Below the pieces are notes generated by a model, which was given only the letters and a program-made list of their open reading frames with translations, was not told the origin of the DNA and searched no databases. A stretch of DNA of 64,000 nt, taken from assembly GCA_947259495.1 (NCBI GenBank), contig CAMYLV010000016.1, forward strand, positions 44,505-108,504, written 5' to 3'. Made by a program: the position numbers and the translations under genes. This DNA comes from an uncultured Desulfobacterales bacterium (GTDB taxonomy: Bacteria; Desulfobacterota; Desulfobacteria; Desulfobacterales; JAHEIW01). Positions 27,194 to 55,789 of the stretch are shown here, piece after piece (within the stretch, counting starts at the first letter, position 1; the number at the start of each line of letters is the position of its first letter).

Positions 27194-27303
27194 CAAACGC
27201 CTCCTTTTATATGATCATTAATTTTCATGCAAAATGCAGGTTATGAATATCAAAGAAGAGCACAGCTTTCAAGAGACCGCTTATCTATTGACCTGAACGG
27301 TGG

Positions 27304-28728
27304 TCAGATGGGATGCGGTGCATCCCACCAACCAATAACAGTGCCGTATCGCTGCCACCGGAGCCCTTCCCGGCGTTCAATTTCTCTGATCCAATCTCCC
27401 AGAGCGGAAGCGTGATGGATCACAAGAGGCGTGCTGTGGGGGGGTAGGACATCGTTTTGCAGGCCATACAGGTAAATGGTTTTTTGAATTTCGGCTGCGG
27501 TCTCTTCGGTATCCCATGCGGTGGGATGGATAAATCCGTGGTTGGCCCCTTCCCTGCTTGAATATCCGAATGCATCTCCAAATTCTTCTTTGAGCTGCCG
27601 CATCAGTCGTATGGCCTGCAGATTTTTTGCAACACTCAATCCCTTGTTCAGATTTCGCAGGATGCGGTCATCAAATGACTCAAATCCGATTGAACTCAAT
27701 AACACAAAAAGGCCACGCCGGGCGGCAACCGCCAACACCGCTCTTAAATGCTGAATCCCGGAAATGAGCCCATCTGCCCTTAAGGTCAGATTGATCTGTG
27801 ATATTCCGATGTGCCGCGAATGGACCGCACTCAGTAAGTCGGAAAGAACCGGCAGCGGATATTCATTAATGAGTTCAAAGGGTATCTTTCTACCATCCGG
27901 TGCCTCAGGCAGACAGCGGATTTGCTGGATCACCGTTTCTGTGTCCAGCGTGCCTTGAAAGCCTTTGTCTACGGCCACGTCGCAAAAGCTGCAGCCACGC
28001 ATGCGAAGCCTGGTTGCTTTGTCCTGGCCTCTGCTGACGGAAGCCGGATAATCGATGCGGGGTTCGGTGGTGCGGGCTGCATGGGGGCAGCCGATGTGTT
28101 GTAAAATCTGTCCCGTCCTGACATTTAAGGGTGCCAGTCCATCTTTTGCGAGTATGTAGATATTCTCCCAGCGCACCCTCCCCAGGTAATTGGGATCCCA
28201 AACTTTCGGGGCATTTTGTCTGACGATGCCATCCGCGTCCACAACCAAAAGCCCGGGGATGGACAATACGTCATTCGTATCCAGACGATTTAGCAACGGG
28301 AGCACCTGCTCTGCCGGCCCCTGCAAACCGTAGCTGAAGGATTCCCACAAACCCTTAAACCGATGGGGATGATCCCGCCAGTCCCTTTCTCCTGAAAAAT
28401 CAACGTTTGCCTGCGGACCCGCCAGAATGGTGACGGCCCCCTCGGCCTTCAGCTCAGCGGCCAGGGAGAAAAGATCTTCGCGGCCACTCAAAGCGGAAAA
28501 GCCGATGATGGGTCTGTGGACGCCAAAATAATCTGCCAGTACCTTTTTCAGCGCAATCCGGTCATCTTCCCGACTGACGGCGATCACGATGCACTCACAG
28601 GCGCTGTGGTCTTCGATGATGGTGGCCGCCATCTGGGGACCCAGAAGACCGTAAGTCTCACCTTTGAAAAAGCTGGTAATGACGGCCATTTTTTTTGCGG
28701 GACGGTATGTTGTGCGGAGGGCTGTCAT
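27304..28728 (-). CDS. B12-binding-domain-like / radical-SAM-like protein with non-canonical Cys spacing
   Basis: N-terminal Rossmann-like segment. HIGCPH...(31 aa)...GCSFCDV replaces a compact CxxxCxxC. A TIM-barrel-like region follows. Confidence 0.5.
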   Translation of the reverse strand: MTALRTTYRPAKKMAVITSFFKGETYGLLGPQMAATIIEDHSACECIVIAVSREDDRIALKKVLADYFGVHRPIIGFSALSGREDLFSLAAELKAEGAVTILAGPQANVDFSGERDWRDHPHRFKGLWESFSYGLQGPAEQVLPLLNRLDTNDVLSIPGLLVVDADGIVRQNAPKVWDPNYLGRVRWENIYILAKDGLAPLNVRTGQILQHIGCPHAARTTEPRIDYPASVSRGQDKATRLRMRGCSFCDVAVDKGFQGTLDTETVIQQIRCLPEAPDGRKIPFELINEYPLPVLSDLLSAVHSRHIGISQINLTLRADGLISGIQHLRAVLAVAARRGLFVLLSSIGFESFDDRILRNLNKGLSVAKNLQAIRLMRQLKEEFGDAFGYSSREGANHGFIHPTAWDTEETAAEIQKTIYLYGLQNDVLPPHSTPLVIHHASALGDWIREIERREGLRWQRYGTVIGWWDAPHPI

Positions 28729-28740
28729 TTATTCATCTAT

Positions 28741-28778
28741 AGAAAAAATAGAGGTCCCCAGATGAACCGGGGACCCCC
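28741..28778 (-). terminator. Rho-independent terminator candidate after the AOR ferredoxin subunit
   Basis: On the minus strand: GGTCCCC-N9-GGGGACC followed by TCTATTTTTTCT. Confidence 0.6.
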
Positions 28779-28899
28779 ATCATTAATCCAAGATAAAATC
28801 ATAGTGGGATTTATTCGGAATTTGATGCTTGAAAATTGGGATTTAAACGAATTTATTTAAATCTATAAGTTTTTAAACCAATCCGTAAAATGGTGTCAG

Positions 28900-29397
28900 T
28901 TAAAATTGATTCTCCAACGCAGCGGCATCCTTGCTCGCGGAAGATACCCGTTCCGCTGCCTTGCGCCGCTTGGAGATGCTCACTTTATCGGCTTCAACAA
29001 AGTCCACGGCTTTTTCCTCACAGAATCGGACACACTGCGGATCGCCGTCACAGAGGTCGCACTTGAAGACCTTTCTGTCGGTAGGATTAAATATCATGGC
29101 ACCGAAAGGACATGCGCTCACACAGGAACGGCATCCAATGCAGACATCATAATCCACCACGACCCTTTCCAATTCCGCATTGCGTGAGATCGCCTTAACC
29201 GGGCAAACATTCAAACAGGGTGCATCCTGACACTGCTGGCAGGACATCGGGATATACAGACCTTCGGCCTCCCATTTAACCACCCGGATCCGGCTTCTGG
29301 CAGGATTCGATATTCCATCATGCGAAACAGCGCACACAAGCTCACACAGCTGACAGCCCGTGCACTTCTGGTGATCTATATATAGCACTTTAGCCAT
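28900..29397 (-). CDS. Poly-[4Fe-4S] ferredoxin-like AOR electron-transfer subunit
   Basis: Four Cys clusters (CTGCQLCELVC, CQQCQDAPC, CIGCRSCVSACP, CDLCDGDPQC). It is adjacent to the AOR gene. TAGGAGG RBS. Confidence 0.85.
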   Translation of the reverse strand: MAKVLYIDHQKCTGCQLCELVCAVSHDGISNPARSRIRVVKWEAEGLYIPMSCQQCQDAPCLNVCPVKAISRNAELERVVVDYDVCIGCRSCVSACPFGAMIFNPTDRKVFKCDLCDGDPQCVRFCEEKAVDFVEADKVSISKRRKAAERVSSASKDAAALENQF

Positions 29398-29455
29398 TTA
29401 TATCCTCCTATCTAATTGAGCGAAAACCGCTCAATTAGGTTTAACTCAATTGGGA

Positions 29456-31396
29456 TTACAGCATATGGGACGGCTCATTTTCCAGGCCGAGGTTTTTCAA
29501 GGTCTCTTTTTTAGGAACACCCTCTCGATCGAGTCCCTGGTGCTTGTATAATTCATCGACCATCTTGACGAATTTTTTCTTGTCGATCGTCAGACCGATC
29601 ACATCGATGGCGCCGCGTTTGCAGGGCTCATCGAAATAACGGTGGTTCAACATATCGCCTTTCTCAAGATCGTTGCGGGTTAACCCTTCCCTTAAGTTGA
29701 AGAGTCTTTCGATCATGTTGCATCGTCGGGCGGCCTCCCAGATCTCTTCGGGTGTCATTTCGAGTCCGGTATTATAATAAAGCACTTTTGACCAATCCTC
29801 GAAATTGGGCAGTGTCGGTCCCAGGAAGGTTGTATGATATTTGCAGATTCCGAGACAGTCGACGCCCATGAAACAGTTTTCCTGCCAGAAAACCTGCCAG
29901 GGTTTGCCGACATATTCGGTATGCTCGGAGCTCAGCGGCCCGTCATAGGGTACGGGGCTGCCGTAAATCTTCCTTAAAACCTTTTCCGGCAGATGGTATA
30001 AATCGATGGCCGGCCTGCTCCTCAAATGGTCCGAACCCCTTGACGCGGTGGCAACATTGAGCGCCAGTGCCGGTGTGGGCCGTTCATCCGAATGCAAATT
30101 GCTCATGCCTTTGACCTGAACAAGATAATCAAAAGATTTCTTCCCGATCTTTTTCGAGGCTGGAATTCCGCCGTCGGCAAGTGCATCTGCCAGCCAGCCT
30201 TTGCGGTAGCAGATCCGTTCAACCATTTCCAGGACCACCTTGTCATTACCCCAGCTCAGATCGAGCCCATCGGTTTCTTTGTCGGTAATGATACCCAGCT
30301 CGTAGAGCTCCATAGCCCAGGAAATAAGGCTGCCGGTTTCAAGATTATCCATCCCGAACTGATTGACCAGATAATTGCCGGTCAGAACCGTCTCAGCCCG
30401 GGGTGTGTCGGTCTCGGCCCCAAATGCCCCCAGAGAGGTGTATTCGGGACCTTCATCGTATTTTCCGGCCAGGGGGCCTCCCGGAATTTTATACTGGGCG
30501 CGGCAATGGACCTGGCAGCCGAAGCAACCCGTCATATGATGGGGTCCCATTGACTCTTCAGCAATTTCATCAATACGCTCGGGTTCGATGTCATCGGCAT
30601 ATTCACACTGATTGTATTGAAAATTTCGGGTCCGGACACCGCCCCAGCAATTCGTCGCACCCCAGATGAAAGGGGTCCCTAACACACCCTGGGTTTGGTT
30701 CACCTTGGCGCTCACGATTTGATCGATGAAGCGTTTATTGTATTCCAGAGCTTCAACCGGATGGGCAATCTGGATGTCCATGGTCCCGCGGGCAGCAACA
30801 GCCTTCAGATTCTTGGAACCCATGACACATCCCATACCCGTGCGACCGCCGGAATTTTTGATTCCCGTCATCACGTTGGCAAACCGAACCAGATTTTCTC
30901 CGGCCGGCCCGATAACGCAACTTTTGACTTCCTCGTCTCCCAGATCTTCCCGGATGGCCCACTGGGTGTCGGTTACGGATTTACCCCAGATATCGCGCGC
31001 GTCGCGAATTCCGATTTCGCCGTTGTTAATCGAGATATAAACGGGATGTTCGGCCTTGCCTTTGATGACCAGATGGTGAAAGCCTGCCCAGGCCAGCTCG
31101 GGTGCAAAAAACCCGCCCATGTTCGTGCTGCCCAGCAATCCGGTCAGCGGCGATTTGGCCATAATATGCGTTCTGGCAGTTGCGGAAGCGCAGGTGGCGG
31201 TCAGAATACCGCCGCTGATCAACAGGGTGTTTGCAGGCCCCAGCGGATTACATCCCTTTTTTGTATGGTTATACAGCAGATAAGCATCCAGTCCGCGGCC
31301 GCCCAAAAATTTCTTGCGGATATCGAGCGGAATCGGTTTGGTTTCGACATCACCGGTGGTGAGATCGATGTATGCGATCTTTCGGTTTAACGCCAT
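29456..31396 (-). CDS. aor: Tungsten-type aldehyde:ferredoxin oxidoreductase
   Basis: 646 aa with AOR N-terminal and pterin-binding domain patterns (GGRGL...LISGG..., GLDxxS, CxxC region). Confidence 0.9.
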   Translation of the reverse strand: MALNRKIAYIDLTTGDVETKPIPLDIRKKFLGGRGLDAYLLYNHTKKGCNPLGPANTLLISGGILTATCASATARTHIMAKSPLTGLLGSTNMGGFFAPELAWAGFHHLVIKGKAEHPVYISINNGEIGIRDARDIWGKSVTDTQWAIREDLGDEEVKSCVIGPAGENLVRFANVMTGIKNSGGRTGMGCVMGSKNLKAVAARGTMDIQIAHPVEALEYNKRFIDQIVSAKVNQTQGVLGTPFIWGATNCWGGVRTRNFQYNQCEYADDIEPERIDEIAEESMGPHHMTGCFGCQVHCRAQYKIPGGPLAGKYDEGPEYTSLGAFGAETDTPRAETVLTGNYLVNQFGMDNLETGSLISWAMELYELGIITDKETDGLDLSWGNDKVVLEMVERICYRKGWLADALADGGIPASKKIGKKSFDYLVQVKGMSNLHSDERPTPALALNVATASRGSDHLRSRPAIDLYHLPEKVLRKIYGSPVPYDGPLSSEHTEYVGKPWQVFWQENCFMGVDCLGICKYHTTFLGPTLPNFEDWSKVLYYNTGLEMTPEEIWEAARRCNMIERLFNLREGLTRNDLEKGDMLNHRYFDEPCKRGAIDVIGLTIDKKKFVKMVDELYKHQGLDREGVPKKETLKNLGLENEPSHML

Positions 31397-31397
31397 C

Positions 31398-31658
31398 TTA
31401 GGATACCCCCTTTTCCTTTAATTTTTCTTCCGCCAATTTCTTGTTGACCGCCCAGACCGGACCCCGAATACGGGGAAAATTGGGATTGACCCAATGGATC
31501 CGGTATTCCATTCCGCAGGTCGGGCATTTGGCGGTCTTGCTGCCCTTTTCCGGCTGAATTCTTTCCATGCAGCTCGGATTATGGCATCTGAACTTACCGT
31601 AGGTCCGGGTCTTGCGAAGACTTTCGGCCGTTGAAAGGCCTTGCTTATCGGTCGCCAT
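31398..31658 (-). CDS. Zinc-ribbon small protein coupled to aor
   Basis: AGGAGA RBS. CHNPSC...CPTC. Its stop lies 1 nt before the aor ATG. Confidence 0.55.
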   Translation of the reverse strand: MATDKQGLSTAESLRKTRTYGKFRCHNPSCMERIQPEKGSKTAKCPTCGMEYRIHWVNPNFPRIRGPVWAVNKKLAEEKLKEKGVS

Positions 31659-31796
31659 GCTTCTCTCCTTTGTTTTATTAGAACCCATCCAAAAATGCGT
31701 CCGGAAGCGCAGAGCTTTACTTTTATGATGGCTTCTGTGGAATTTTATCCGCTTAACGCAAACCTGACTTTGCGGAGGGTTGCATACAGTCAAATA

Positions 31797-31814
31797 TGTT
31801 CATCATCATGAACA
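31797..31814. promoter_or_regulatory. Dyad operator candidate Op1 (TGTTCAT-N4-ATGAACA)
   Basis: Perfect 7-bp inverted repeat in the iclR/aor divergent spacer. Confidence 0.55.
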
Positions 31815-31974
31815 AATCGTCTTTCTAAGCTTGATACCACAAAGCGTTTTTTTGATCAAGCGAAAATATCGCTCTCATCTTATTATTTCGACCTGTATTT
31901 GGTACTCAAAGTATCAATTACAGATTAAATCCTGACTATAATGAGATCCTTAATTTGGACTTTACGAAATTGTC

Positions 31975-31990
31975 GTTCATTGAGATGAAC
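31975..31990. promoter_or_regulatory. Dyad operator candidate Op2 (GTTCAT-N4-ATGAAC)
   Basis: Same dyad, about 45 bp upstream of the iclR start. Confidence 0.55.
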
Positions 31991-32034
31991 ATAATTATGT
32001 TGACAAATACCGATATCCGATTGTATCCTCAGTT

Positions 32035-32838
32035 ATGAAAAAATATGGCGCACCCTCTGTAAAAAAGGCATTTGCCATCCTCGGTGCCATTTCCTCGTCC
32101 AGAGTTGGCCTGGGAGTGAGCGAACTGGCCAAAAACCTCAAGATGGCCAAGAGCACGGTTCATGGGATGGCCTCGGCCCTGGAAGAACTGGGCGCCGTCA
32201 TGCGGGATCCGCTGACCAAAAAATATAAACTGGGTTTTACTCTGCTCGAAATTGGCCGTTCGGCCTACACCCAGATTGATCTCAAAACGTCGGCACGACC
32301 GGTCATGGAAGACCTGATGGAAAAAACCCAGACATCGGTTTTTCTGGGTATCCTGAACTGGGACCATGTGACCATACTGGATATTGTCGAATCCAGACAG
32401 GATCTCAAAATCACAGCCCCCGTCGGCACCACCATACCCATGCTGGCCGGAGCCGTGGGCAAGGTCTTTCTGGCATCCATGGATGACGAGCAGGCCCGCA
32501 AAATCGTTAAATCCAAGGGATTGCCCCGCTTTACGGCCAATTCGATCGTCGATACGGCATCGTATTTTCAGGAGCTAAAGCAAGTCAGTGAACAAGGCTT
32601 CGCCGTTGATGATGAGGAATATATTCTCGGTGTCCGGGCGGTGGCATCACCGCTGATCGGTCTGGGACAATTGAGGTCGGCCATCTGGATCGTCGGGTTC
32701 AAGGCCAGTCTTGATGAAAAAAAGATGAAAACACTTACCGGCGAAACCCACAAGGCCGCCGCGACCATTAGCCGGCGGATTCAACAACAGCTCATTGCTC
32801 CCCAAAACGGCCAATTTAGTGAAAGACAAGTGATTTGA
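32035..32838 (+). CDS. IclR-family transcriptional regulator
   Basis: N-terminal wHTH (KAFAILGAISSSRVGLGVSELAKNLKMAKSTVHGM) and a C-terminal IclR effector domain. Confidence 0.85.
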   Translation: MKKYGAPSVKKAFAILGAISSSRVGLGVSELAKNLKMAKSTVHGMASALEELGAVMRDPLTKKYKLGFTLLEIGRSAYTQIDLKTSARPVMEDLMEKTQTSVFLGILNWDHVTILDIVESRQDLKITAPVGTTIPMLAGAVGKVFLASMDDEQARKIVKSKGLPRFTANSIVDTASYFQELKQVSEQGFAVDDEEYILGVRAVASPLIGLGQLRSAIWIVGFKASLDEKKMKTLTGETHKAAATISRRIQQQLIAPQNGQFSERQVI

Positions 32839-34240
32839 CCGTAACCGGAAATACCTGACCGGCCACCAGGGGCTCACCGATATCGACCCAATCACCTTCT
32901 TTGAGCGTTAGCTCATCAAGAGTCAGTAAATTGGTTTTTAAATCCGTTTCACGGCGAATAACGTTTCCGACACCGCACGCAATGTCGGTTCCAAAAATTA
33001 AAATAATCGGGAGGCCGTTCTTTATTGAATCGGCATGGGCCGCTTCAATTGATCTGGCAAACAATTCCAGCCGGGGATAGGACGCCTGAACCGGATTCTT
33101 AAAATATAGCGCCACAACGTCCTCGCCTTCGACCCGGTCAAATCGCCGGAAGGCGGCATTTATCTGCGATACAATATGTTCAAAACTTAAATTTGATGGG
33201 TCTACATCCACCCGAAGGACCGGCACGTTTCTGATCGGAAACACAATCTGATCGTCCATAAAACAAGAGCTGCCCGATATGGATAATGAATAGGCACCGG
33301 CACCAATGACGGTGGCTCTGATTTTATTGGCAGGTTCAACAACCGCGGCAGTCAATCCGGGTGTCAAGGCATTAATTTGTTCGGCCAGAATTTTCCCGAT
33401 ATCGTCATAATGGTTTAACCCGCCGTACATCAGTTCAGCAACCCCACCGGAAAATGAATATTCGTCAATGCGGCCGGGAAGTTGCAGATCATCGGTCTGT
33501 ATAAGCTGCCGGGCTAAGCGGGATTTGGCGGGCCCCGTGATCACCTCGAACAAAATCTTGCCAAACGTTGCGGCGATGCTTTTGATCTCTGCTTTTGAAA
33601 TGCGATCCCCGATTGTATAGTTCAGCCCTAAATGCTGCATCACGGCCTGGGCCGGTTGGTCGATGCGCCAGATTTTTCCTTTGGAGCTGACGCCCAGCAC
33701 TCGCCCACCGACAGAGATGCAACTGGTCGACAGGGTCTGCCCATTTTTGATGACGGCGATGTTTGATGTTCCGCCGCCGATATCGCAGGATAAGATGGTC
33801 TTATTTCGATCTTTAGATCGCGCTACCGCGCCGGAACCCATTGCGGCGATTAAGCTTTCGAAATTGGGTCCTGCTGTGGCCGCTACAAATTTTCCGGCAT
33901 CATTGGATAACGCTTCGGCAATTTGCCGGGCGTTTTTCTTGCGAGCAGACTCGCCGGTGACAATGACCGCGCCGGTTTGGATATCTTTCGGATGAATTCC
34001 CGCACGTTCATATTCTGCTTTAAAAAATTCAGTTAATTTACCGATATCAATTGTTTTATCGTCTGATAAAGGCGTATGAATGATATTGCCTTCATAGACG
34101 ATGTGTCTTTGCTGAATTTTAAAGCGACGGGTAACCGAACGCTCATCTTTTTTCAGCAAGAGTTTGGAAAAGACCAGATGACTGGTTGAACTCCCGACAT
34201 CCACCCCAACTGAAAGTATGTCAAATTCGTTTGTTTCCAT
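32816..34240 (-). CDS. EutA-like ASKHA-fold ATPase (reactivase/activase-like)
   Basis: LSVGVDVGSSTSHLVFS...VIVTGESA...DIGGGTSNIAV matches the EutA family pattern. Its 3' end overlaps the iclR 3' end convergently. Confidence 0.7.
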   Translation of the reverse strand: METNEFDILSVGVDVGSSTSHLVFSKLLLKKDERSVTRRFKIQQRHIVYEGNIIHTPLSDDKTIDIGKLTEFFKAEYERAGIHPKDIQTGAVIVTGESARKKNARQIAEALSNDAGKFVAATAGPNFESLIAAMGSGAVARSKDRNKTILSCDIGGGTSNIAVIKNGQTLSTSCISVGGRVLGVSSKGKIWRIDQPAQAVMQHLGLNYTIGDRISKAEIKSIAATFGKILFEVITGPAKSRLARQLIQTDDLQLPGRIDEYSFSGGVAELMYGGLNHYDDIGKILAEQINALTPGLTAAVVEPANKIRATVIGAGAYSLSISGSSCFMDDQIVFPIRNVPVLRVDVDPSNLSFEHIVSQINAAFRRFDRVEGEDVVALYFKNPVQASYPRLELFARSIEAAHADSIKNGLPIILIFGTDIACGVGNVIRRETDLKTNLLTLDELTLKEGDWVDIGEPLVAGQVFPVTVKSLVFH

Positions 34241-34247
34241 AATCAAA

Positions 34248-34404
34248 GGTTCAGAGGTTCTGCGTTCTGCGTTCAGGCTTCAGGGTTTCGCGTTCAGAGG
34301 TTCAGGGTATCGGGCCTTGACTAGACGGAGCTCGTCGCAGACTGTCGGTTGGCGATGGCGACTATCTACCGTTATCTAACCTTTGAACGTTGAACCTTTG
34401 AACC
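34248..34404. repeat. Word-repeat imperfect palindrome (GGTTCAGAGG words)
   Basis: GGTTCAGAGGTTCTGCGTTC (34248-34267) matches the reverse complement of 34385-34404 at 17 of 20 positions. There are additional GTTCAG repeats. Confidence 0.5.
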
Positions 34405-34442
34405 CGTGACTCAAGCCAGAAACCTTTATTCGGGGCAACGGT

Positions 34443-35141
34443 TTAGCTATTTTTATTTGGGTGCGATTTTGAACCATCGCCCAGCCCGGCTCTTACCCGC
34501 TTTCGCACCCCGGACGCACCGCCCGGGCGCCAGTCTTTGGATGAGCGGATTTCTTCATAGCAGTGCAGTTTGTCCATCTTTTTGAGCCGCGCAACAATCT
34601 GGGTCCAGGCGCAAGGCGTGCCCTGGCCAACTTCACAGAACCCCCCTTTGGAACCGCCGCAGGGGCCGTTAAAAAGACTTTTCGCGCAGCGCGCAACCGG
34701 ACATATGCCGCCGGTATGAATCAGAATACAATTGCCGCAACCTTTGCATTTTTCGGTCCATGAACCCGGTTTATCCGATGCGCCCAGAAAGGTCGTATTT
34801 AAGGCCGGAATCACCGGCACCGGTTCAAGTTCATCTGCCAGGGTTTGAACACCGGCGCCGCAGGCCAGCGACAGAACTGCATCGGTCCCGGGGGGAATCT
34901 CCTGATAATCGTGCACCAGATCCCGCTCACACTGCCTGAGGATTGACCCGACCACAAATTTCGGCGGTGGACCCTGATAATGCCGTATCTGAGAGAGCTC
35001 GCGACTGAGCTGTTCAGCCTCCCTTTCGCCGCCCGAAAGACAGACCGTCACGCAACTGCCGCAGCCCAGAACAAGCACCTGTTTGTAGTCTTTGATGGCA
35101 GAAACTATTTCTTCCAGCGGTTTTAAATCTCCAACGATCAT
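34443..35141 (-). CDS. MetV-like protein (methylene-THF reductase C-terminal domain family), Cys-rich
   Basis: VLVLGCGSCVTVCLSGG..., CKGCGNC, ICPVARCAKSLFNGPCGG. No metF is nearby. Confidence 0.6.
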   Translation of the reverse strand: MIVGDLKPLEEIVSAIKDYKQVLVLGCGSCVTVCLSGGEREAEQLSRELSQIRHYQGPPPKFVVGSILRQCERDLVHDYQEIPPGTDAVLSLACGAGVQTLADELEPVPVIPALNTTFLGASDKPGSWTEKCKGCGNCILIHTGGICPVARCAKSLFNGPCGGSKGGFCEVGQGTPCAWTQIVARLKKMDKLHCYEEIRSSKDWRPGGASGVRKRVRAGLGDGSKSHPNKNS

Positions 35142-35153
35142 CTGTACCTCAAT

Positions 35154-35546
35154 TTAAGTTTTATTTTCTTCGCCCGGTTTTGAGGGCAGCATCTTGGCGG
35201 CCGCCGCATATTGCCGGTGCTTTGGACAGAGTGTTTCACTGGCTGAATTCAGTTTGCTTTCCATTTTTTGCTGAAAGGCCGGCGAATAAAGTACTTCGCC
35301 GCATAACCGGCAATGAATCAAATCAAGCGCAATGACGTCATCCCATTCGCCCACTAAAAGATGCTGGAACTCGATGGCACGCTGGGGGCAAACTCGCCAG
35401 CATTGACCGCAGCGCGCACATTTGGTCATATTGTGTTTGAGTGTCCGCCTGCCGCCCTGATCGTCAAACCCCAATGCTGAAGCCGGGCAATTTTCCACGC
35501 AGGCCAGACATCCGTTACAATTATCATTAACTCGAAAATAAGACAT
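35154..35546 (-). CDS. 2x[4Fe-4S] ferredoxin-domain protein with Cys-containing C-terminal extension
   Basis: CNGCLACVENCP and CARCGQCWRVCP. Confidence 0.75.
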   Translation of the reverse strand: MSYFRVNDNCNGCLACVENCPASALGFDDQGGRRTLKHNMTKCARCGQCWRVCPQRAIEFQHLLVGEWDDVIALDLIHCRLCGEVLYSPAFQQKMESKLNSASETLCPKHRQYAAAAKMLPSKPGEENKT

Positions 35547-35723
35547 TAGTTTTCACCGGTATCTATTTAAAATATTAAACTTTTTAATTTATAAATGAAT
35601 CAAGCATAGCGCATAGGGCATAGCGTCCGAATGAAAGAAGAAAAAAATGGTATATTTTAACGCCATGCGCTTTGTCCTTTGCCTTCATTTTTTAAAATTT
35701 GAAACGTTCAATTTAGGAAAAAC

Positions 35724-36011
35724 CTAGCCGCCGCCGACTAAAAGCATTATCTTAACCTTATCACCGTCTTTCAGCGGCCGCTGTGACAATTTATTTCGGG
35801 GTACAAAGCCTTCGTCATTGAGCATCACCTGGATTGTCATATCCAGCTCGCCGCTGTCGTCCAACAATACTTTACGCGCCTTGCTACCGGTTCGGTTTAC
35901 AATATGCGCAATGAGATCCGCCACCGAGCCGTCAGCCATTTCCAGTTCGGTCTTTCTGCCGATTAATTTGGACAGGGACGGCAACCCGAGAGATTCTACC
36001 TGGATTTTCAA
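35724..36011 (-). CDS. MoaD/ThiS-family ubiquitin-like sulfur-carrier protein
   Basis: 95 aa ending ...LLVGGG. AGGAGG-N5-TTG start. Confidence 0.7.
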   Translation of the reverse strand: MKIQVESLGLPSLSKLIGRKTELEMADGSVADLIAHIVNRTGSKARKVLLDDSGELDMTIQVMLNDEGFVPRNKLSQRPLKDGDKVKIMLLVGGG

Positions 36012-36040
36012 TGAAACCTCCTAAAAAATGCTTGATGACG

Positions 36041-36167
36041 GAGCGTCAAGCTTTGGCGTGACTTGAAGACCAGCCCACCGGGCTTTGAAGAGCGCCTCTT
36101 CGGGGCTTTAAGTCAGAGGCAAATTTTATTTTACCTTTAGCGAAGCGCTCTTCAAGTGAAACGCTCC
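36041..36167. repeat. Structured imperfect palindrome (CTTGAAGA words)
   Basis: GGAGCGT...TGACTTGAAGA is complementary to TCTTCAAGTGAAACGCTCC. Inner hairpins: GAAGAG-CGC-CTCTTC and GCCC-ACC-GGGC. Confidence 0.55.
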
Positions 36168-36216
36168 TATAGTACCAGCGCACTGCGCGGGGACGACCCG
36201 ATAATCCTGAGCGGGA

Positions 36217-36705
36217 TTATCGCTTATGATGTCGTGTCGCCCGGGCGTAAGATTTGGCAGCCTGGCGCATGCGACCGGTGCTGACGTTGCTGGTTGCCTG
36301 ATAGTCAACCGCTCTGGTATAGCAAAAGCGCACGCATTGCGGGTCGCCATCACACAGATTGCATTTGAAAACGCGGCCCCGCCCTGTATTCCATCGCATG
36401 GCACCAAAGGGACAGGCTGCAACACACATTTTGCAGCCGATGCAGAGGTCATGGTTGATGGTGACGCTTTCAAGCACCTCATCGCGGTAGATGGCATCTT
36501 GGGGACAGACTTCCAGACAGGGAGCATCTTCACACTGCTGACAGCTCATGGGTATATAAACGCCGATGTGTTCCCATTTAACCACCTGAATCCGGGCCAA
36601 AGAGGGGTTGCTCACCCCATAATGCCTGACCGAACAAACGAGCTCGCAGTTCCGGCAACCGGTGCACTTTTCCGGATCTATCGTCAGTAATTTCTTGGCC
36701 ATCAT
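36217..36705 (-). CDS. Paralog of the AOR poly-ferredoxin subunit
   Basis: Collinear with 28900..29397 (KCTGCRNCELVC, CQQCEDAPC, CIGCKMCVAACPFGAM, FKCNLCDGDPQCVRFC). No AOR catalytic gene follows. Confidence 0.8.
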   Translation of the reverse strand: MMAKKLLTIDPEKCTGCRNCELVCSVRHYGVSNPSLARIQVVKWEHIGVYIPMSCQQCEDAPCLEVCPQDAIYRDEVLESVTINHDLCIGCKMCVAACPFGAMRWNTGRGRVFKCNLCDGDPQCVRFCYTRAVDYQATSNVSTGRMRQAAKSYARATRHHKR

Positions 36706-36765
36706 CAACCCCTTGTGTCGAACAGGATTGTCACAGATAACGACAACCCAATCACTATTAAGATT

Positions 36766-36781
36766 GTTCACTTCAATGAAC
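36766..36781. promoter_or_regulatory. Dyad operator candidate Op3 (GTTCAC-N4-ATGAAC)
   Basis: Lies about 60 bp upstream of the 36705 start. Confidence 0.5.
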
Positions 36782-36894
36782 GATTAAGATGATTTATACT
36801 ATCAGCTAAAACTGTTTTGTCAAGCAGTATGTTGTTAGATATTAAATTACATGGCTAAAGTATGGAGTTGATTCATATCAATTGACGATAAATC

Positions 36895-36910
36895 GTTCAT
36901 CATAATGAAC
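36895..36910. promoter_or_regulatory. Dyad operator candidate Op4 (GTTCAT-N4-ATGAAC)
   Basis: Perfect dyad in the spacer between the ferredoxin operon and the ABC importer. Confidence 0.55.
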
Positions 36911-37346
36911 TTTATTATTCTAACTGTATCGCCGAGCAATATACATGAATCCACCGCTGCGGGGACCATACCAAATAATAAAACATCAAAGACCAATTGC
37001 CAGTTCTCGGAATAATCAATATCGATCCAACCTGAATATGCCATTGTAAATAATGCTCAGGCATAACAAATTTCTTGACAACCCGCCACGGTTCATATAG
37101 CTACCACAGAGTAGCTATTTCATAGCTATATTGCCTGCACTTAGATGATCTATATAAATGGTTGCCAGGCTAAACTTAATCGCTTATTCAATAACGTTGA
37201 GAAAGGCGATTCTCATCCACAAACCGCTCGGAGCCGCTTGCCACCGTTACCCCGCAGCGGTAAAATCCGCAGCACCGTTTCCAAATAAATGCTTTAACCT
37301 GTTTTCTCCCGTATGCTGGGGGGAAGCCCACAAAAGGAGGCGTCTA

Positions 37347-38627
37347 ATGAAACGTAACGTATTCTTACTCTGTCTTGCGATAGTCGCTGTGTTTGTCTGG
37401 ATGATACCCGGGCCGACTGTCTATGCTGCCGAGCCGATTGTTATCGGCGTCCCCACTTCCATGGGTTTTCTGGAAGGCAAAGAATCTCACAAGGCGGTTC
37501 AAATTGCGGTCAGCGAGATTAACGCCCAGGGCGGTGTCAATGTCGGCGGTACCAAACGGCTTTTAAAGGTCGCCGCAACAGACCTGCGGGATGCCGCTCC
37601 CGGCGTCCCCGTACCGGAAGCATTGCTGGGTCTGGAGAAAATCATCCTGGAAAAGAAACCGACTGCCATTGTCGTGGGGCCATTTCGTTCGGAAGCTTTG
37701 ATCGCAGGCATGGATATCATTGCCAAATACAAGGTGCCGATGCTGGGCACCATTGCGATGAGCCCCGGTTCCGAGAAAAAAATCAAAGGAGATCCGGAAA
37801 AATATAAATATATTTTTAGAACCTGCCTCAATGCGGTGCATCTGGTGAAATATTTGGCCGGCAGCATGGCGCTGATCAATAAGGAATTCGGGTTCAACAA
37901 AGTTTTCGTTATGCATCAAGACGTTGCCTGGGCTAGAGCAACAGCAGGATTTGTCAAAAAAGTGTATTTCGACAAGGCCGGCTGGGAGGTTTTAGGTATG
38001 GAGGCTTATCCAACAGGCACCTCTGATTTTTCATCCGCCCTGATGAAAGCGCGGGCCAAGGGTGCTCAAGTCATTATGCCGATATTTGATATGCCCCAGA
38101 GCGGCATTCTGGTGAAACAATGGAAATCAATGAAAGTGCCCGCTTTGATGGCCGGCTTTATCTCACCCCTGGCCGGATCGGAAGCCTGGAAGACTTTTGA
38201 TGGTAAAATCGGCGGCGCCATGAACAGCATCTTTGAGCTGGGCAGTGCCATTTATTCCCCGAAAGTACCCAAGTCGAAGGAATTTTTTAATAAATATAAA
38301 AGAACGTTTGGCAAACCCGTCCAGGGCGGCCACGGCATTGCGCCCTCCTATGAATCGGTCTATATCCTGGCCGAAGCGATTGAGCGGGCCGGCAGCCTGG
38401 ACCCGGACGCCATTGTAGCGGAACTGAAGAAAACAGACCGCAATGGTGTCATGGGACGTGTTCGATATGACGAGGGCAATCAGGCCGTCTTTGGTACCGA
38501 CCCCGGTGAAACAGCCATCGGCCTGGTTTTTCAGTGGACAGATGACGGGCAGCGCAGGATCGTATTCCCGGCGTCTGTTGCCGAGGCCAAAATCCAGCTG
38601 CCGCCCGGATTAAAGTCTCTGAAATAG
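37347..38627 (+). CDS. ABC transporter substrate-binding protein (Liv/branched-chain-amino-acid type)
   Basis: AAGGAGG-N6-ATG at 37347. Signal peptide ...TVYAAEP. Peripla_BP_6-like pattern. The listed 37158 start is an artefactual extension. Confidence 0.85.
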   Translation: MKRNVFLLCLAIVAVFVWMIPGPTVYAAEPIVIGVPTSMGFLEGKESHKAVQIAVSEINAQGGVNVGGTKRLLKVAATDLRDAAPGVPVPEALLGLEKIILEKKPTAIVVGPFRSEALIAGMDIIAKYKVPMLGTIAMSPGSEKKIKGDPEKYKYIFRTCLNAVHLVKYLAGSMALINKEFGFNKVFVMHQDVAWARATAGFVKKVYFDKAGWEVLGMEAYPTGTSDFSSALMKARAKGAQVIMPIFDMPQSGILVKQWKSMKVPALMAGFISPLAGSEAWKTFDGKIGGAMNSIFELGSAIYSPKVPKSKEFFNKYKRTFGKPVQGGHGIAPSYESVYILAEAIERAGSLDPDAIVAELKKTDRNGVMGRVRYDEGNQAVFGTDPGETAIGLVFQWTDDGQRRIVFPASVAEAKIQLPPGLKSLK

Positions 38628-38810
38628 GCGCTCGGGGTCCGCAAAATTAACGTGTCCATGTTCGATTAGCTTAAAGCGGAAGATTGATATATTCATACCG
38701 CTTAGCAGGGTAATGTTGCGGGTCATCGACCACCCGTTCACCTGTACCAAACCGCAGCAGAAATAGAGGTTTAAACAGGTTACCATAATAAAACTGGAGA
38801 AAACGATTTA

Positions 38811-39683
38811 ATGTTCATCGGCACCGTGCTTTACGCTGTGGTAAACAGCGTTATTTTAGCGTTGTTGGCGATCGGTTTCAATTTAACTTTCGGCATCAGC
38901 GGTGTGGCGAATTTTGCCTACGGGGCCCTGTATATCATGTCCGCCTACCTGAGCTGGATGCTCTTGAATCTTTTGGAGCTCCCGTTTCTACTCGCAGCTG
39001 TCATATCCATCCTCATTACCACTCTGTGCGGGGCACTGATGTACCGTTTCGTATTGCTGCGTGTGCGGGGTCAGGCGCTTTCCGAAGTGATCGCAACCTT
39101 TGGCATTGGTCTGGCCATACTGGAGTTGTTCCGATACCTGGGCTTTGTGGGATTTGAGTACACCCTGCCCGTGCTTATCGACCATAGCTTTGTTATTTTC
39201 GGCGCCTATATTGACATGCAACGCATTTTAATCGTTATTGTCGGTGCGGTGCTGGTCATTTTCCTATGGCTTTTTACCCACCATACGTCTATCGGACTCG
39301 CTTTCAGAGGGATTGCCCAGGATGAACGCACGGCCCTTAGCCTGGGCATCAATTCAGATCGAATCGCAACTTTAAGCGTCTCCTTTGGTGCCGGTCTGGC
39401 CGCCATCGCAGCCACCATTATCATCCCGCTTGGAAGCATATCCCCAAGCGAAGGATACGATGTACTGATCAAAGCGCTTGCGGTGTGCATTATCGGCGGC
39501 CTGGGCAGCACCGGCGGTGTTATTGTTGCCAGTTTTGTCATCGGTTTTGCCGAACGCTTTACAGACAGTTATATCAGCTCGCACTGGACGATGATTGTCA
39601 GCCTGGCGGCGATACTGATCGTGCTGACCATTAAACCTTCCGGTCTCTTCGGCAAACAAAAAGAGCTGGAAGAGCGAATTTAA
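38811..39683 (+). CDS. ABC permease, LivH-like
   Basis: Polytopic membrane protein with the LivH pattern (GISGVANFAYGALYIM...). Confidence 0.85.
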   Translation: MFIGTVLYAVVNSVILALLAIGFNLTFGISGVANFAYGALYIMSAYLSWMLLNLLELPFLLAAVISILITTLCGALMYRFVLLRVRGQALSEVIATFGIGLAILELFRYLGFVGFEYTLPVLIDHSFVIFGAYIDMQRILIVIVGAVLVIFLWLFTHHTSIGLAFRGIAQDERTALSLGINSDRIATLSVSFGAGLAAIAATIIIPLGSISPSEGYDVLIKALAVCIIGGLGSTGGVIVASFVIGFAERFTDSYISSHWTMIVSLAAILIVLTIKPSGLFGKQKELEERI

Positions 39684-39687
39684 AAAA

Positions 39688-40737
39688 GTGAAATCGGATT
39701 TCGGAATGCGGAATGCGCAGCTAAACTCAACCGATTCTAAACACCGGCGCAAAGAACGCATCGATCGCGGCATCAAAGCCCGCTCCAGCGATATCTTTGC
39801 CCTGTCGTCCTGGCGTGAGATGCTCTATCTGGCGGCACCCAGATGTATACCCATCGTCGGGTGCCTGATGCTGCCGCTGGTGCTCGGTATTTACTGGCAA
39901 AAGGTCTTGCTCAGTGTGGCGGTTTTTGCGCTGTTGGCCATCAGCTGGGATATCTTGGAGCAAAGCGGCATGATATCGCTGGGACAGGCACTTTTTTTCG
40001 GCATGGGCGCTTACACGGCCGGCGTTTTCAATCACTATTTCGGCTGGCCACCATTTTTAACCATCCCCTTTGCTTCCATTTTAGGTGGGTTGATCTCTAC
40101 CGTCATTCTGCTTCCGGTGCTGCGGCTGAGAGGCATTTACTTTTCCATGGTGACCCTGATCATCCCGCTGATGCTGGTACGGATTGTCGAAGCCACCAGG
40201 ATCTTTGGGGGCACCGAAGGGTTGAGTGGCATTACGCCCCTGCCCTCAAAATGGCTCGAACTCTATCTGATTGTCGGCGCCCTGTTGGGGGCCCTCTTTG
40301 GCTTCCGCCGGATGATGGGATCAGATTACGGTCTGGTCTTAAAGGCCATCAGAGACAATGATCGATCGGTCATGAATGCGGGCATCAATGTATATTGGTT
40401 TAAGGCGCAGGCACTGTTTATTGCCAGTGCAATCGGGGCTTTTGCAGGCGCCTTTATGACCCACGTCTATATGTTCGTCGGTATGCCGGTCTTTGCGCTG
40501 GATTATTCCATCCTGCCCATTGCGGCTGCGGTGGTGGGCGGACCCGGCACACTGGCGGGTGCCACCCTGGGCGCTTTTATTCTGGTTCCGCTGTCAGAAA
40601 TCTTGCGTGGCATCGGTGGGCTGCGCATCGTAATCTACGGACTGTTTCTGGTGGTGTTTATCGTTGCCCTGCCGGAAGGCATCTTCCACTATATTCAGCG
40701 CAAATATCACCAGTTTGAACGCTGGGTGGAGGTGTAG
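39688..40737 (+). CDS. ABC permease, LivM-like (start uncertain)
   Basis: The GTG is 4 nt after the livH stop. LivM-like core (SLGQALFFGMGAYTAG). Confidence 0.8.
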   Translation: MKSDFGMRNAQLNSTDSKHRRKERIDRGIKARSSDIFALSSWREMLYLAAPRCIPIVGCLMLPLVLGIYWQKVLLSVAVFALLAISWDILEQSGMISLGQALFFGMGAYTAGVFNHYFGWPPFLTIPFASILGGLISTVILLPVLRLRGIYFSMVTLIIPLMLVRIVEATRIFGGTEGLSGITPLPSKWLELYLIVGALLGALFGFRRMMGSDYGLVLKAIRDNDRSVMNAGINVYWFKAQALFIASAIGAFAGAFMTHVYMFVGMPVFALDYSILPIAAAVVGGPGTLAGATLGAFILVPLSEILRGIGGLRIVIYGLFLVVFIVALPEGIFHYIQRKYHQFERWVEV

Positions 40738-40739
40738 GC

Positions 40740-41492
40740 ATGCACCCGTCTCCGCTGCTCAAGGTCGCCGGCCTTTATAAAAACTTCGGAGGGGTCCAGG
40801 CCATTCATGACTTGAGCTTTGACCTGGCCCGGGGAGAGCTATTGGGCCTGATCGGCCCCAACGGCTCGGGAAAAACGACGGCCGTGAATCTGATCACCGG
40901 TTTTGTCAAACCCACCGAAGGCAATATTATTTACAACGGACAGAATATCAGTGGGTTGCCGCCCTACAAAATTATCCGAATGGGGATCGCGCGCACCTTC
41001 CAGATGGTCAAGCCTTTCTATCAGTTGCCGGCTTATAAAAACATGATTATTCCGCTGTATTCACCGCGGGTCAAAAAAAGGGTCGGCGGGAAATATGGTG
41101 ACCGCGACGCGGTGGCCCTGGATCTTCTGGAAGAAGTCGGCTTTGAACGCGATGCCTTCGTGGCCTACAAAAGCGCCAGTGTGTTGCCCCAGGGCTACCT
41201 CAAACGCCTGGAACTGGCCAAAGCCATCGCCCTGCAGCCGGATTTGATTATTCTGGATGAACTGTTTTCGGGCTTGAGCCTGGCTGAAGTGGCCAGTATC
41301 GTGCCGATCATTGAAAAATTGCGCCTGGAAGGCAAAACCATTATTATGATCGAGCATCGCTTAAAGGAGCTTTTTAGAATCGCTGACCGCATCATCGTTT
41401 TAAATTACGGTGAAAAAATCGCGGAGGGGTTTTCAAACGAAGTGATGGAGAGCGATGCCGTCAAGAAAGCATATCTAGGAGCAGAAGCTTAA
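40740..41492 (+). CDS. ABC ATPase, LivG-like
   Basis: Walker A GPNGSGKTT, signature LSGL-type region, Walker B ILDE. Confidence 0.85.
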   Translation: MHPSPLLKVAGLYKNFGGVQAIHDLSFDLARGELLGLIGPNGSGKTTAVNLITGFVKPTEGNIIYNGQNISGLPPYKIIRMGIARTFQMVKPFYQLPAYKNMIIPLYSPRVKKRVGGKYGDRDAVALDLLEEVGFERDAFVAYKSASVLPQGYLKRLELAKAIALQPDLIILDELFSGLSLAEVASIVPIIEKLRLEGKTIIMIEHRLKELFRIADRIIVLNYGEKIAEGFSNEVMESDAVKKAYLGAEA

Positions 41493-41512
41493 TTTTCATT
41501 TAAAAATGGCCC

Positions 41513-41611
41513 TTTTTCCGATGAGCTGCGTTCTCCGCGGGTTTCAGCCCTCGACGTACTCTAAGTACGCCTCAAGCTGAAACCCTTGTGCGGCCTTGCT
41601 CATCGAAAAAA
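41513..41611. repeat. Nested palindrome inserted between the two ABC ATPase genes
   Basis: Outer arms TTTTTCCGATGAGC and GCTCATCGAAAAAA (13 of 14). Inner perfect 10-bp arms GGGTTTCAGC and GCTGAAACCC (41539-41548, 41576-41585). Core GTACT-CTA-AGTAC. Confidence 0.6.
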
Positions 41612-41736
41612 TTGCTCATTTCCATATTGAAAATCAACTATTGCTGTGCTTTGGGAAAACCATTCTCGGATGGGCGAAAATAATTAGGCAGCTGAAAATC
41701 GTATTTCTTTTGTTCCAGCGGATTAAGGATTTGAAA

Positions 41737-42483
41737 ATGTTGGAAGTTCAAAATTTGATGGTTTTTTTTGAGAACGCCCTGGCCATCAATGACTTAAACA
41801 TAGAAGTCGATGAAGGTGAAATAGTGGGTGTCATCGGCTCAAACAGTGCCGGAAAAACCACCCTGATGAATGCACTCTCCGGCCTGATCATCGACATGCG
41901 TATCAAAGAAAAGCGCAGAGGCGGCGAACGCATCACCGTTTACGGAAATATCCTCTTTAACGGTCAAGACATCACTGAAACGCGCCCCGATGACCGGGTC
42001 AAAATGGGCATTGTGCTTTGCCGTGAACGACACCCCATTTTCCCTGAAAGCAGCGTGCTGGAAAATTTAAAGATCGCCGGATACTTGAAAAAGCGGCCGG
42101 AGGTACTTGACTCCATTAAATATGTTTTTGACCTTTTTCCGGCTCTGCCCAAATTAAAAACCCGCAAAGCCGGATTTTTAAGCGGCGGGGAGCAGCAAAT
42201 GCTGGCCATCGGTATGGCGTTGATCGTGCGTCCGAAGCTTTTGTTGCTGGATGAGCCGCTCCTCGGGTTGAGCCCCATGATGCAACAGGTGGTCGTGGAC
42301 GCGGTTGCGCATCTTAAAAAAAGGACCGGGATCACGGTGGTCATCAGTGAACAGTTTGCCCGGCCGGTTTTGCCGATGATCGACAAAGGCTATATCGTCG
42401 AAAACGGGATGCTGACCTTATCGGGCACCGGCCAGGAGCTAATGGACAACCCTGAAATTAAATCCGCATATTTTGGAATCTGA
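41737..42483 (+). CDS. ABC ATPase, LivF-like
   Basis: Walker A GSNSAGKTT, LSGGEQQ, LLLDEP. The ATG at 41737 follows AAGGA. Confidence 0.85.
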   Translation: MLEVQNLMVFFENALAINDLNIEVDEGEIVGVIGSNSAGKTTLMNALSGLIIDMRIKEKRRGGERITVYGNILFNGQDITETRPDDRVKMGIVLCRERHPIFPESSVLENLKIAGYLKKRPEVLDSIKYVFDLFPALPKLKTRKAGFLSGGEQQMLAIGMALIVRPKLLLLDEPLLGLSPMMQQVVVDAVAHLKKRTGITVVISEQFARPVLPMIDKGYIVENGMLTLSGTGQELMDNPEIKSAYFGI

Positions 42484-42492
42484 CACTTGCCA

Positions 42493-44163: not shown

Positions 44164-44370
44164 GTTATTGGTTACCGGTTATTCGTTATTGGTTAAATTC
44201 AGCTTTCCCTGAGATAAACTGATTTGCATCGACAAAATCTACAGATGACATGAACGTTTCAAATGAAGTACCGAATCAACAACCGACCGATTAAGATATA
44301 TCCATAATAAAGTCATTATTCCGCTTTTCTGTGTCTCTATTCAAAAATTTGATCTAACAAAGTATTCTTG

Positions 44371-44414
44371 TTGACAGCGACTGCGTCCTTGTTATATTCT
44401 TTTTATGGAATATA
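44371..44414 (+). promoter_or_regulatory. Sigma70-like promoter with overlapping dyad upstream of arsR
   Basis: TTGACA (44371-44376), 16 nt, TATATT (44393-44398). Perfect dyad TATATTC-N8-GAATATA (44393-44414). Confidence 0.5.
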
Positions 44415-44424
44415 TGGAGGCGCT

Positions 44425-55786: not shown

Positions 55787-55789
55787 TCC

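Follow-up and report, generated by a model that had tools for sequence, protein, structure and literature searches.

Predicted operators of an IclR-family regulator at a tungsten aldehyde oxidoreductase locus of an uncultured Desulfobacterales bacterium

A stretch of 64,000 nucleotides from an uncultured Desulfobacterales bacterium (contig CAMYLV010000016.1 of assembly GCA_947259495.1, positions 44,505 to 108,504; the whole stretch is called the window below) contains four copies of the palindromic dyad GTTCAY-N4-ATGAAC. They are located close to an operon for a tungsten aldehyde oxidoreductase (AOR) and to iclR, a gene for an IclR-family regulator. The dyads are a real cis-element that is tied to the iclR gene. 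With a probability of about 0.75 they are operators of this IclR protein, which would most likely repress the aor operon, its own gene and a neighbouring accessory operon for ferredoxins and MoaD-, MetV- and EutA-like proteins. A preliminary description of the window had reported the four dyads and had proposed that they unite these genes and a Liv-type importer/CoA-ligase operon in a single regulon.

Results

Four exact dyads are located in two divergent spacers

All four exact dyads are non-coding and lie inside two divergent spacers of the window. Sites A and B are found between the aor operon and iclR (31659-32034), sites C and D between the accessory operon and the importer operon (36705-37346); the coordinates of all features are collected in Table 1. 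The reported positions proved to be correct; the previously given interval 31797-31814 extends site A by a single base at either end. When the window was shuffled 100 times with its dinucleotide composition preserved, the motif occurred on average 0.04 times per shuffle, and no shuffle reached the observed number of four. A search for further copies with one mismatch or less found none in the complete 64 kb, which extends the earlier statement that the other intergenic regions are free of the dyad. If two mismatches are allowed, additional sites appear at 26225, 30082, 52558 and 58607, each with two mismatches. The resulting total of 8 compares with 3.2 expected sites, and these four extra sites are at chance level.

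The dyads are conserved in orthologous loci

More than 1,600 relatives of the IclR protein were detected with an E-value of 1e-20 or better. The best 120 of these are all at least 81% identical, and those with a taxon name belong to metagenome bins of Desulfobacterales or Desulfobacteraceae. Starting from an alignment of 20 of the best relatives, 63 genomic loci with flanks of up to 10 kb were retrieved using the recognition-helix peptide AKSTVHGM; the full-length identity of the IclR proteins is 62-91%. The phylogenetic footprinting that had been suggested earlier was performed with this set. Exact copies of GTTCAY-N4-RTGAAC were counted 144 times in 59 of the 63 loci (751 kb in total). For the core GTTCA-N6-TGAAC we obtained 178 copies in 815 kb of orthologous Desulfobacterales loci with 0.8 expected from the base composition, an enrichment of about 200-fold.

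A position weight matrix, as proposed in the preliminary description, is circular for the core positions if it is built from pattern-selected sites, and was replaced by mismatch classes split into coding and non-coding DNA. Outside long open reading frames (ORFs) we found 142 of 148 exact sites and 35 of 44 sites with one mismatch. The variants with two mismatches split 111 to 28, which is approximately the ratio of coding to non-coding DNA and corresponds to chance level. The dyad is thus strongly enriched and almost exclusively non-coding, and it is present in nearly all orthologous loci. A similar frequency in coding or unrelated DNA and absence from orthologous loci that keep the same genes had been named as the outcomes that would speak against the proposed regulon, and neither was observed.

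In the synteny map the dyads occupy the aor-iclR spacer and the region that separates the accessory operon from its outer neighbour. A pattern-independent MAFFT alignment of 13 aor-iclR spacers revealed as conserved islands the two dyads, two promoters, the start of iclR and the ribosome-binding site of small86, the gene for an 86-amino-acid zinc-ribbon protein that heads the aor operon. Site D is likewise a conserved island in an alignment of 11 loci downstream of D. The distances within the pairs form clusters of 128-131, 154-156, 164-168 and 171-179 bp, with one pair at 62 bp.

A motif-only scan leads back to the same gene context in half of the listed stretches

As a reverse test, metagenomes were scanned for two dyads 100-130 nt apart, using no protein information, and at least 120 stretches were obtained. 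Among the 120 listed stretches, 60 show an AOR, accessory or importer context, and iclR was found wherever the flank reached it. Six others are periodic arrays, and most of the remaining 54 belong to repeat families whose copies share the full 16-mer with no or hardly any differences. The arrays have periods of about 38-132 bp and resemble CRISPR or tandem repeats. Unrelated repeat families with GTTCAC-N4-GTGAAC are also among the listed stretches (L105, L119 and L131; L071, L098, L101 and L155). One identical 16-mer, GTTCACACGTGTGAAC, is present in at least 5-7 copies per locus in such a family, and one unit is repeated 5-11 times per locus.

These unrelated families could suggest that the dyad studied here has itself arisen by chance or belongs to a dispersed repeat, but we regard this as practically negligible. 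The whole 16-mer is identical in the repeat families, whereas only the half-sites are conserved at the orthologous loci and both centre and flanks vary; the orthology of the sites across 59 loci already excludes chance and repeats.

The scan additionally revealed distant IclR relatives with the same dyads after promoter-like hexamers, two with 50-51% identity (L096 and L172) and one with 31% (L148). Their recognition helices, GKSTVHGI, SKGTVHGI and PKSSLHGL, are related to AKSTVHGM.

The IclR protein and the operator type

The product of iclR is a standard two-domain member of the IclR family. It consists of an N-terminal winged helix-turn-helix (PF09339, HTH_IclR; residues 8-59, E 8.7e-13) and the effector-binding domain IclR_C (PF01614; residues 78-247, E 8.2e-35). 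Full-length relatives in the PDB are 1mkm (TM0065) and 2xrn (TtgV). The sequence relation to TtgV and to E. coli IclR is distant (E 1e-19 to 1e-22). BhcR, KdgR, IclR, AllR and PcaR/PcaU were tested as characterised members for orthology, and no NCBIfam equivalog was reached (BhcR 155/350 bits, KdgR 139/275, other models 112/285, 105/380 and 92/406). BhcR and KdgR match over the full length, but their scores are far under the equivalog cut-offs, so the protein is not an orthologue of either.

The half-site centres of GTTCA-N6-TGAAC are 11 bp apart, i.e. one helical turn, as expected for a helix-turn-helix dimer. A published survey of the family gives for group-1 operators the consensus GKTYCRYW3-4RYGRAMC and for its even-spaced subgroup NGT-12-ACN the sequence NGTYCRAW4TYGRACN (Suvorova & Gelfand 2021, PMC8222616). 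GTTCAY-N4-RTGAAC corresponds to consensus positions 2 to n-1 and fits group 1; the flanking G/C positions of the consensus are not conserved here. Features shared with the subgroup are the even palindrome, half-sites of the type GTYCR (GTTCA in this case), G-T/A-C ends at a distance of 12 nt, an A/T-biased centre (position 8 is A in 72%, position 9 is T in 72%) and the location of sites at the regulator's own gene and at divergent operons. It differs at the innermost dyad positions, which are Y/R (T 82%, C 18%) and not A/T. Conservation upstream of orthologous targets and of the regulator's own gene, as expected of a group-1 operator, was found here both in the 59 of 63 loci and in the 60 of 120 listed motif-only stretches.

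The same source describes tetramer binding and sites near the start codon of the regulator as typical of the family, and tandem sites 18-22 nt apart as a common but not obligatory feature (94 of 181 groups). The pairs described here are spaced differently, with 62, 127-131 or 154-179 bp between the sites. KdgR-type operators (group 2, TGRAACA-N1-2-TGTTYCA), as given there, have half-sites arranged oppositely to those of the dyad. A Desulfobacterales or AOR regulon was not found in the searchable parts of the paper and its supplements.

We propose IclR as the binder because of the geometry of the dyad, the published consensus, the result of the motif-only scan and the distant IclR relatives with the same dyads. 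The zinc-ribbon gene is linked to the dyads as tightly as iclR and its product has no known family, which leaves room for the idea that this protein, or a global regulator, binds the dyad and that iclR merely travels along. Such an arrangement is improbable, since the dyad fits the published IclR consensus (PMC8222616) and is present at the promoter of iclR itself. Moreover, L172 has a dyad pair ahead of a distant AOR-family operon without any detected zinc-ribbon homologue, and a further dyad directly beside iclR; the locus L148 with its 31% identical IclR has no detectable homologues of the AOR context and keeps the dyads. A further point is that zinc-ribbon paralogues pair one-to-one with AOR paralogues (see below), which suggests an enzyme partner.

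Position of the dyads relative to predicted promoters

A recurrent promoter-operator module consists of CTTGAY, a 17-nt spacer, the extended -10 element TGnTATnAn and, after 14-17 nt, the dyad. It was found 86 times in 59 sources, and the -35 element begins 38-46 nt upstream of the dyad. In almost every orthologous locus a conserved extended -10 element precedes site A by 17 nt. Site C sits 14 nt downstream of the -10 element of the accessory-operon promoter, which matches the consensus at 10 of 12 positions, contains in addition the TG extension and is conserved across loci. These predicted positions of A and C, downstream of the -10 elements of conserved sigma-70 promoters, are repressor positions. 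Sites B and D have no promoter module of the kind seen at A and C, and D has no conserved -35 element of its own. Transcription is predicted to begin near 31824 (aor operon) and 36789 (accessory operon) on the minus strand, and at 32035-32037 (iclR) and about 37110 (importer operon) on the plus strand.

Site B ends 9 nt upstream of the predicted -35 element of iclR in the window and 6-12 nt upstream in many loci. In most other lineages the -10 element of iclR is separated from the ATG by an additional dyad, frequently the weaker GTTTATTATGGYGAAC; on the predicted promoter this is the classical arrangement for autorepression. Because the ATG follows the predicted -10 hexamer in the window lineage after only about 5-6 nt and without a Shine-Dalgarno sequence, the iclR mRNA may be leaderless there. 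A sigma-54 promoter at a conserved TTGCCAG block was rejected by eye due to the misfit of the -12 element.

As A and C are predicted to be transcribed ahead of the first genes of the aor and accessory operons, the palindrome might also function in these 5' leaders as an RNA hairpin with a stem of 6 bp and a loop of 4 nt. This is very improbable, as positions 6 and 11 show no compensatory covariation (T/A 97, T/G 33, C/A 16, A/G 11, C/G 2), B and D lie outside the predicted transcripts and no Rfam match was obtained.

Proposed mechanism and points against it

In the proposed mechanism an IclR dimer would bind each GTTCA-N6-TGAAC site. Without effector, IclR bound to A and C would block transcription of the aor operon and of the accessory operon. 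Sites B and D, 177 and 129 bp upstream of A and C, would serve as distal partners that stabilise repression, probably by tetramer bridging or a DNA loop. This idea is supported by the spacing of C and D, which is 127-131 bp in 62 of 64 pairs despite diverged intervening sequence; looping is only a suggestion, since crisp helical phasing is lacking for A and B. As B abuts the iclR promoter, it would contribute to autoregulation of iclR. Binding of a small molecule to IclR_C would relieve repression, with an aldehyde, an organic acid or a precursor as likely candidates. From the earlier view of two sites per divergent spacer the pairing remains valid, but the sites do not appear to serve two divergent operons; each pair would instead comprise a proximal operator and a distal partner of one repressed promoter.

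Several observations weigh against this repression model. The promoters and transcription starts are predicted from conservation alone, and the -10 element TATCAA of the aor promoter in the window lacks the usual final T and was missed by the consensus scan. The spacing of the A-B type ranges from 154 to 179 bp, is nearly continuous from 164 to 179 bp and shows no crisp helical phasing; helical phasing was consequently rejected as a feature of the site pairs in general, only the C-D class being tight. The association of iclR with the motif is partly built in by the retrieval with AKSTVHGM, a bias that is offset by the reverse motif-only scan. Two IclR homologues with 78-79% identity, in L027 (9765-10553) and L038 (7643-8404), are found without dyads and without an AOR in the vicinity; possibly they are paralogues that act on another target. 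Finally, B is located at about -46 to -61 of the iclR promoter in the window lineage, which fits activation as well as repression. As a side observation, the homologue in L027 is followed by a promoter of the TAGCTA type described in the next section, at 10780.

Some members of the IclR family activate transcription, for example those of the PobR and PcaU type. The position of B, at about -53 of the iclR promoter and close to the -35 element in many loci, would be compatible with an activator or dual regulator that recruits RNA polymerase from B, and perhaps from D, with effector bound. We consider such a role rather unlikely, because the commonest arrangement is a dyad just past the -10 element (at the aor and accessory operons and, in most lineages, at iclR), where a bound protein would block and not recruit the polymerase.

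The importer/CoA-ligase operon appears to be controlled by a different element

The importer operon has a conserved predicted promoter of its own, CTTGACA-N17-TAGCTA (37074-37128). In the window it includes three palindromic TAGCTA hexamers at 37098, 37112 and 37123; two or three are present across loci, and TAGCTA clusters were found only at importer-type promoters in the window and the 63 genome loci. The true start of the binding protein is 37347, at the signal peptide, which leaves a leader of about 220-240 nt with conserved blocks; the span from promoter to ATG is 232-284 nt across seven loci. A TTCTCC stretch of the leader can pair with the ribosome-binding site AAAGGAGG, a possible anti-Shine-Dalgarno pairing. 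For the promoter and leader no Rfam match was obtained. The TAGCTA element and the leader may serve as an operator for some other regulator, may form a novel leader RNA, or may do both.

The distance between D and the importer promoter varies from 48 to 346 bp across loci and is 179 bp to the importer -35 element in the window. The importer is divergent beside the C-D pair in 39 of the 49 loci with enough flank, and the spacing of D is kept in the 10 of 49 without importer. L022 and L029 each continue with a large convergent ORF whose 3' end points at D, and the arrangement in L016 appears to be similar. Small ORFs in the spacer between D and the importer, a 65-amino-acid minus-strand ORF overlapping D and three others, were rejected as genes since their translation is not conserved in any locus. 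The fixed distance from C to D, the variable distance from D to the importer and the retention of D in loci lacking the importer together identify D as the probable distal partner of C.

An extended regulon, in which IclR would also control the importer/CoA-ligase operon through D as an activator or by a long-range repression loop, would combine uptake, CoA activation and aldehyde oxidation to a coherent pathway. It agrees with the divergent importer beside C-D in most loci and with a lone GTTCAT half-site that 5 of 11 loci have inside the spacer of the importer promoter; this half-site is missing in the group L015/L020/L028/L031. We judge the extension unlikely in view of the large and variable distance of D from the importer -35 element, the fixed C-D spacing, the lack of a conserved -35 at D, the persistence of D where the next gene is convergent or absent, and the importer's own TAGCTA repeats and long leader. 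The operon is syntenic, but on the predicted promoters the operator placement gives no evidence of control by the dyad, and it appears to be controlled by a different element. The proposal of a common regulon is therefore retained for the aor operon, iclR and the accessory operon, where the dyad is conserved at each, and not for the importer/CoA-ligase operon, where D is tied to C and the promoter is a separate one.

The CoA ligase has only generic 4CL/FadD-like matches, and for the binding protein no solved relative was found at an E-value of 1e-15 or better. A substrate inference from these two proteins was dropped.

The aor operon

The gene calls of the preliminary description were broadly supported by Pfam and NCBIfam (AOR, IclR, ferredoxin, MoaD/ThiS, MetV-C (DUF5981), EutA, Liv-type ABC importer and AMP-ligase). 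The AOR protein contains AFOR_N and AFOR_C (Pfam E-values 7.8e-72 and 2.7e-95) and reaches 293 bits over the full length to 1aor and 9mqx_D, and 231 bits to 8c0z_A. By these matches it is a true aldehyde oxidoreductase with an AorA-like partner. BamB, the class II benzoyl-CoA reductase considered in view of a Geobacter paper (PMC1924859), was rejected: the match to 4z3w_A covers residues 7-424 with only 204 bits and is under those to true AORs. Hdr-like BamD-I genes were not found in the aor operon.

The side-by-side genes for AorB-like and AorA-like proteins and the associated MoaD-like gene resemble AorABC of Aromatoleum aromaticum (8c0z; PMC6365974). The FAD protein differs from AorC; it is related to DAO and sarcosine oxidase, matches sarcosine/glycine oxidases only and matches no 8c0z chain. 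Partners that are additional to AorABC are the zinc-ribbon protein, the radical-SAM-like protein, the MetV-C-like protein and the EutA-like ATPase. The gene for the DAO-type FAD protein is present only in the closer relatives of the window. Its family hints at an amine or amino-acid dehydrogenase that would produce the aldehyde.

The zinc-ribbon gene is the first gene of the aor operon wherever a locus covers the operon start, and its product is mostly 82-95% identical. No relatives of this protein were found in Pfam, NCBIfam or the PDB. A zinc-ribbon paralogue precedes each AOR paralogue in a one-to-one relation, which suggests a partner of the enzyme; it may be an AOR subunit or a maturation factor.

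The accessory operon and the regulon in other lineages

The accessory operon is syntenic in most loci. Its EutA-like gene stays linked to this AOR throughout the lineages. This gene and iclR are convergent, and their 3' ends overlap by 23 bp. Among the scanned ORFs of the window no match to ethanolamine ammonia-lyase was found. In the most distant lineages (L050, L054, L056, L057 and L060) the EutA-like gene is located within the aor operon. Four loci show an accessory operon headed by a second AOR paralogue with 55-57% identity and its own zinc-ribbon gene (L014, 7801-10158; L059, 13016-15270; L109, 2719-4968; L130, 2919-5047). By comparison, the accessory operon of the window looks like a version that has lost the second AOR and zinc-ribbon genes.

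Many other lineages carry a dyad-flanked gene for a membrane Fe-S protein of 338-341 amino acids between the aor operon and iclR (e.g. L032, 5290-6315; L057, 8587-9603). Its N-terminal half is hydrophobic; it further has a 2x[4Fe-4S] domain and, at the C-terminus, a cysteine motif. This protein could link AOR to the membrane. As far as can be judged from gene content, the composition of the regulon outside the window lineage supports a functional unit centred on AOR. On this basis we tentatively put forward, at low confidence, that the zinc-ribbon, EutA-like, MetV-C-like and MoaD-like proteins and the extra ferredoxins (elsewhere also the membrane Fe-S protein) form a previously unrecognised accessory module that is co-repressed with AOR.

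Table 1. Positions of the dyads, predicted promoters and genes in the window.
Feature	Position	Strand	Sequence	Description
Dyad A	31798-31813		GTTCATCATCATGAAC	exact match; predicted primary operator at the aor promoter, covering about +10 to +26 from the predicted start
Dyad B	31975-31990		GTTCATTGAGATGAAC	exact match; predicted distal partner of A, 177 bp apart
Dyad C	36766-36781		GTTCACTTCAATGAAC	exact match; predicted primary operator at the accessory-operon promoter, covering about +8 to +23
Dyad D	36895-36910		GTTCATCATAATGAAC	exact match; predicted distal partner of C, 129 bp apart
aor promoter (predicted)	31831-31860	minus	CTTGATC, N17, TGg-TATCAA	CTTGATC 31860-31854 (-35 hexamer 31859-31854); 17-nt spacer; TGg-TATCAA 31839-31831 (-10 hexamer 31836-31831)
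iclR promoter (predicted)	32000-32029	plus	TTGACA, N18, TATCCT	TTGACA 32000-32005; 18-nt spacer; TATCCT 32024-32029
Accessory-operon promoter (predicted)	36796-36823	minus	TTGACA, N16, TG-n-TAGTAT	TTGACA 36823-36818; 16-nt spacer; -10 element 36801-36796
iclR	32035-32838	plus		267-amino-acid IclR-family regulator, recognition helix AKSTVHGM; proposed binder of the dyads
aor operon	25886-31658	minus		five genes; synteny with iclR in 63 loci
Zinc-ribbon protein, 86 amino acids	31398-31658	minus		first gene of the aor operon; CxxC...CxxC
AOR/AorB-like	29456-31396	minus		AFOR domains
AorA-like polyferredoxin	28900-29397	minus		142 bits to 8c0z_C
Radical-SAM-like protein	27304-28728	minus		aor operon
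DAO-type FAD protein	25886-27196	minus		aor operon
Accessory operon	32816-36704	minus		five genes
AorA-like ferredoxin	36217-36704	minus		accessory operon
MoaD/ThiS-like	35724-36011	minus		accessory operon
2x[4Fe-4S] ferredoxin	35154-35546	minus		accessory operon
MetV-C/DUF5981 protein	34443-35141	minus		accessory operon
EutA-like ATPase	32816-34246	minus		accessory operon; PF06277, E 5.5e-140
Importer unit	37074-44139	plus		promoter with TAGCTA repeats, leader, Liv-type binding protein, two permeases, two ATPases, CoA ligase
AMP-forming CoA ligase	42487-44139	plus		importer operon
ArsR-family gene	44368-44769			directly after the CoA ligase; heads the ars-like cluster

Further genes of the window

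The ars-like cluster (44368-47998) encodes the ArsR-family regulator, an ArsP-type permease, a thioredoxin-like protein and an SBF/ACR3-type transporter. IclR is the only regulator of the AOR block, as had been stated; in the wider neighbourhood the ArsR-family gene is a second one. ArsR was set aside as a candidate regulator of the importer, because it heads the ars-like cluster and because its position behind the CoA ligase recurs in L090 only, whereas L121 and L147 do not show it. Two other regions (147-6277 and 52321-62117) contain UbiD-like/UbiX-like decarboxylase genes with a CoA ligase and a UPF0261 protein, a type III polyhydroxyalkanoate (PHA) synthase cluster with PhaR, and a PaaK-like ligase. 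No dyads were found at the UbiD/UbiX, PHA synthase and PaaK-like gene groups of the window.

Discussion

The proposed mechanism is conventional: an IclR-type repressor and its operator, with a known type of motif. E. coli IclR (aceBAK) and TtgV (ttgGHI), which are tetrameric repressors, have the same two-domain architecture (structures 2xrn for TtgV and 2o99 for the effector domain of IclR), and repression at promoter sites with release by a small molecule is predicted here as well. E. coli IclR uses a promoter-proximal and a distal box. The system described here differs from both in the operator sequence and in the predicted position of the primary operator, which is downstream of the -10 element and not over the -35/-10 region. 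New are the clade, the targets (a tungsten AOR and its uncharacterised partners) and the long-range paired layout. In the papers searched we found none that links an IclR protein to a tungsten AOR or reports an AOR regulator, and this type of switch is not described there for the enzyme. A literature search on the motif itself, judged by title and abstract, yielded nothing relevant.

Of the 92 clades of tungsten oxidoreductases in a 2026 classification, only five have been assigned a physiological role (PMC13328260). With its sharp operator, a dedicated regulator would provide an experimental handle on one AOR clade of uncultured sulfate-reducing Desulfobacterales, and a ligand that releases IclR from GTTCA-N6-TGAAC would point to the substrate of the AOR. 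If the tentative accessory module exists, it could provide ATP-dependent activation, repair or electron delivery for AOR, and the IclR effector would then reveal the physiological substrate of an uncharacterised AOR clade. Taken together, the predicted regulon would offer evidence from co-regulation, and not only from gene neighbourhood, for a joint function of the EutA-like, MetV-like and MoaD-like genes with AOR.

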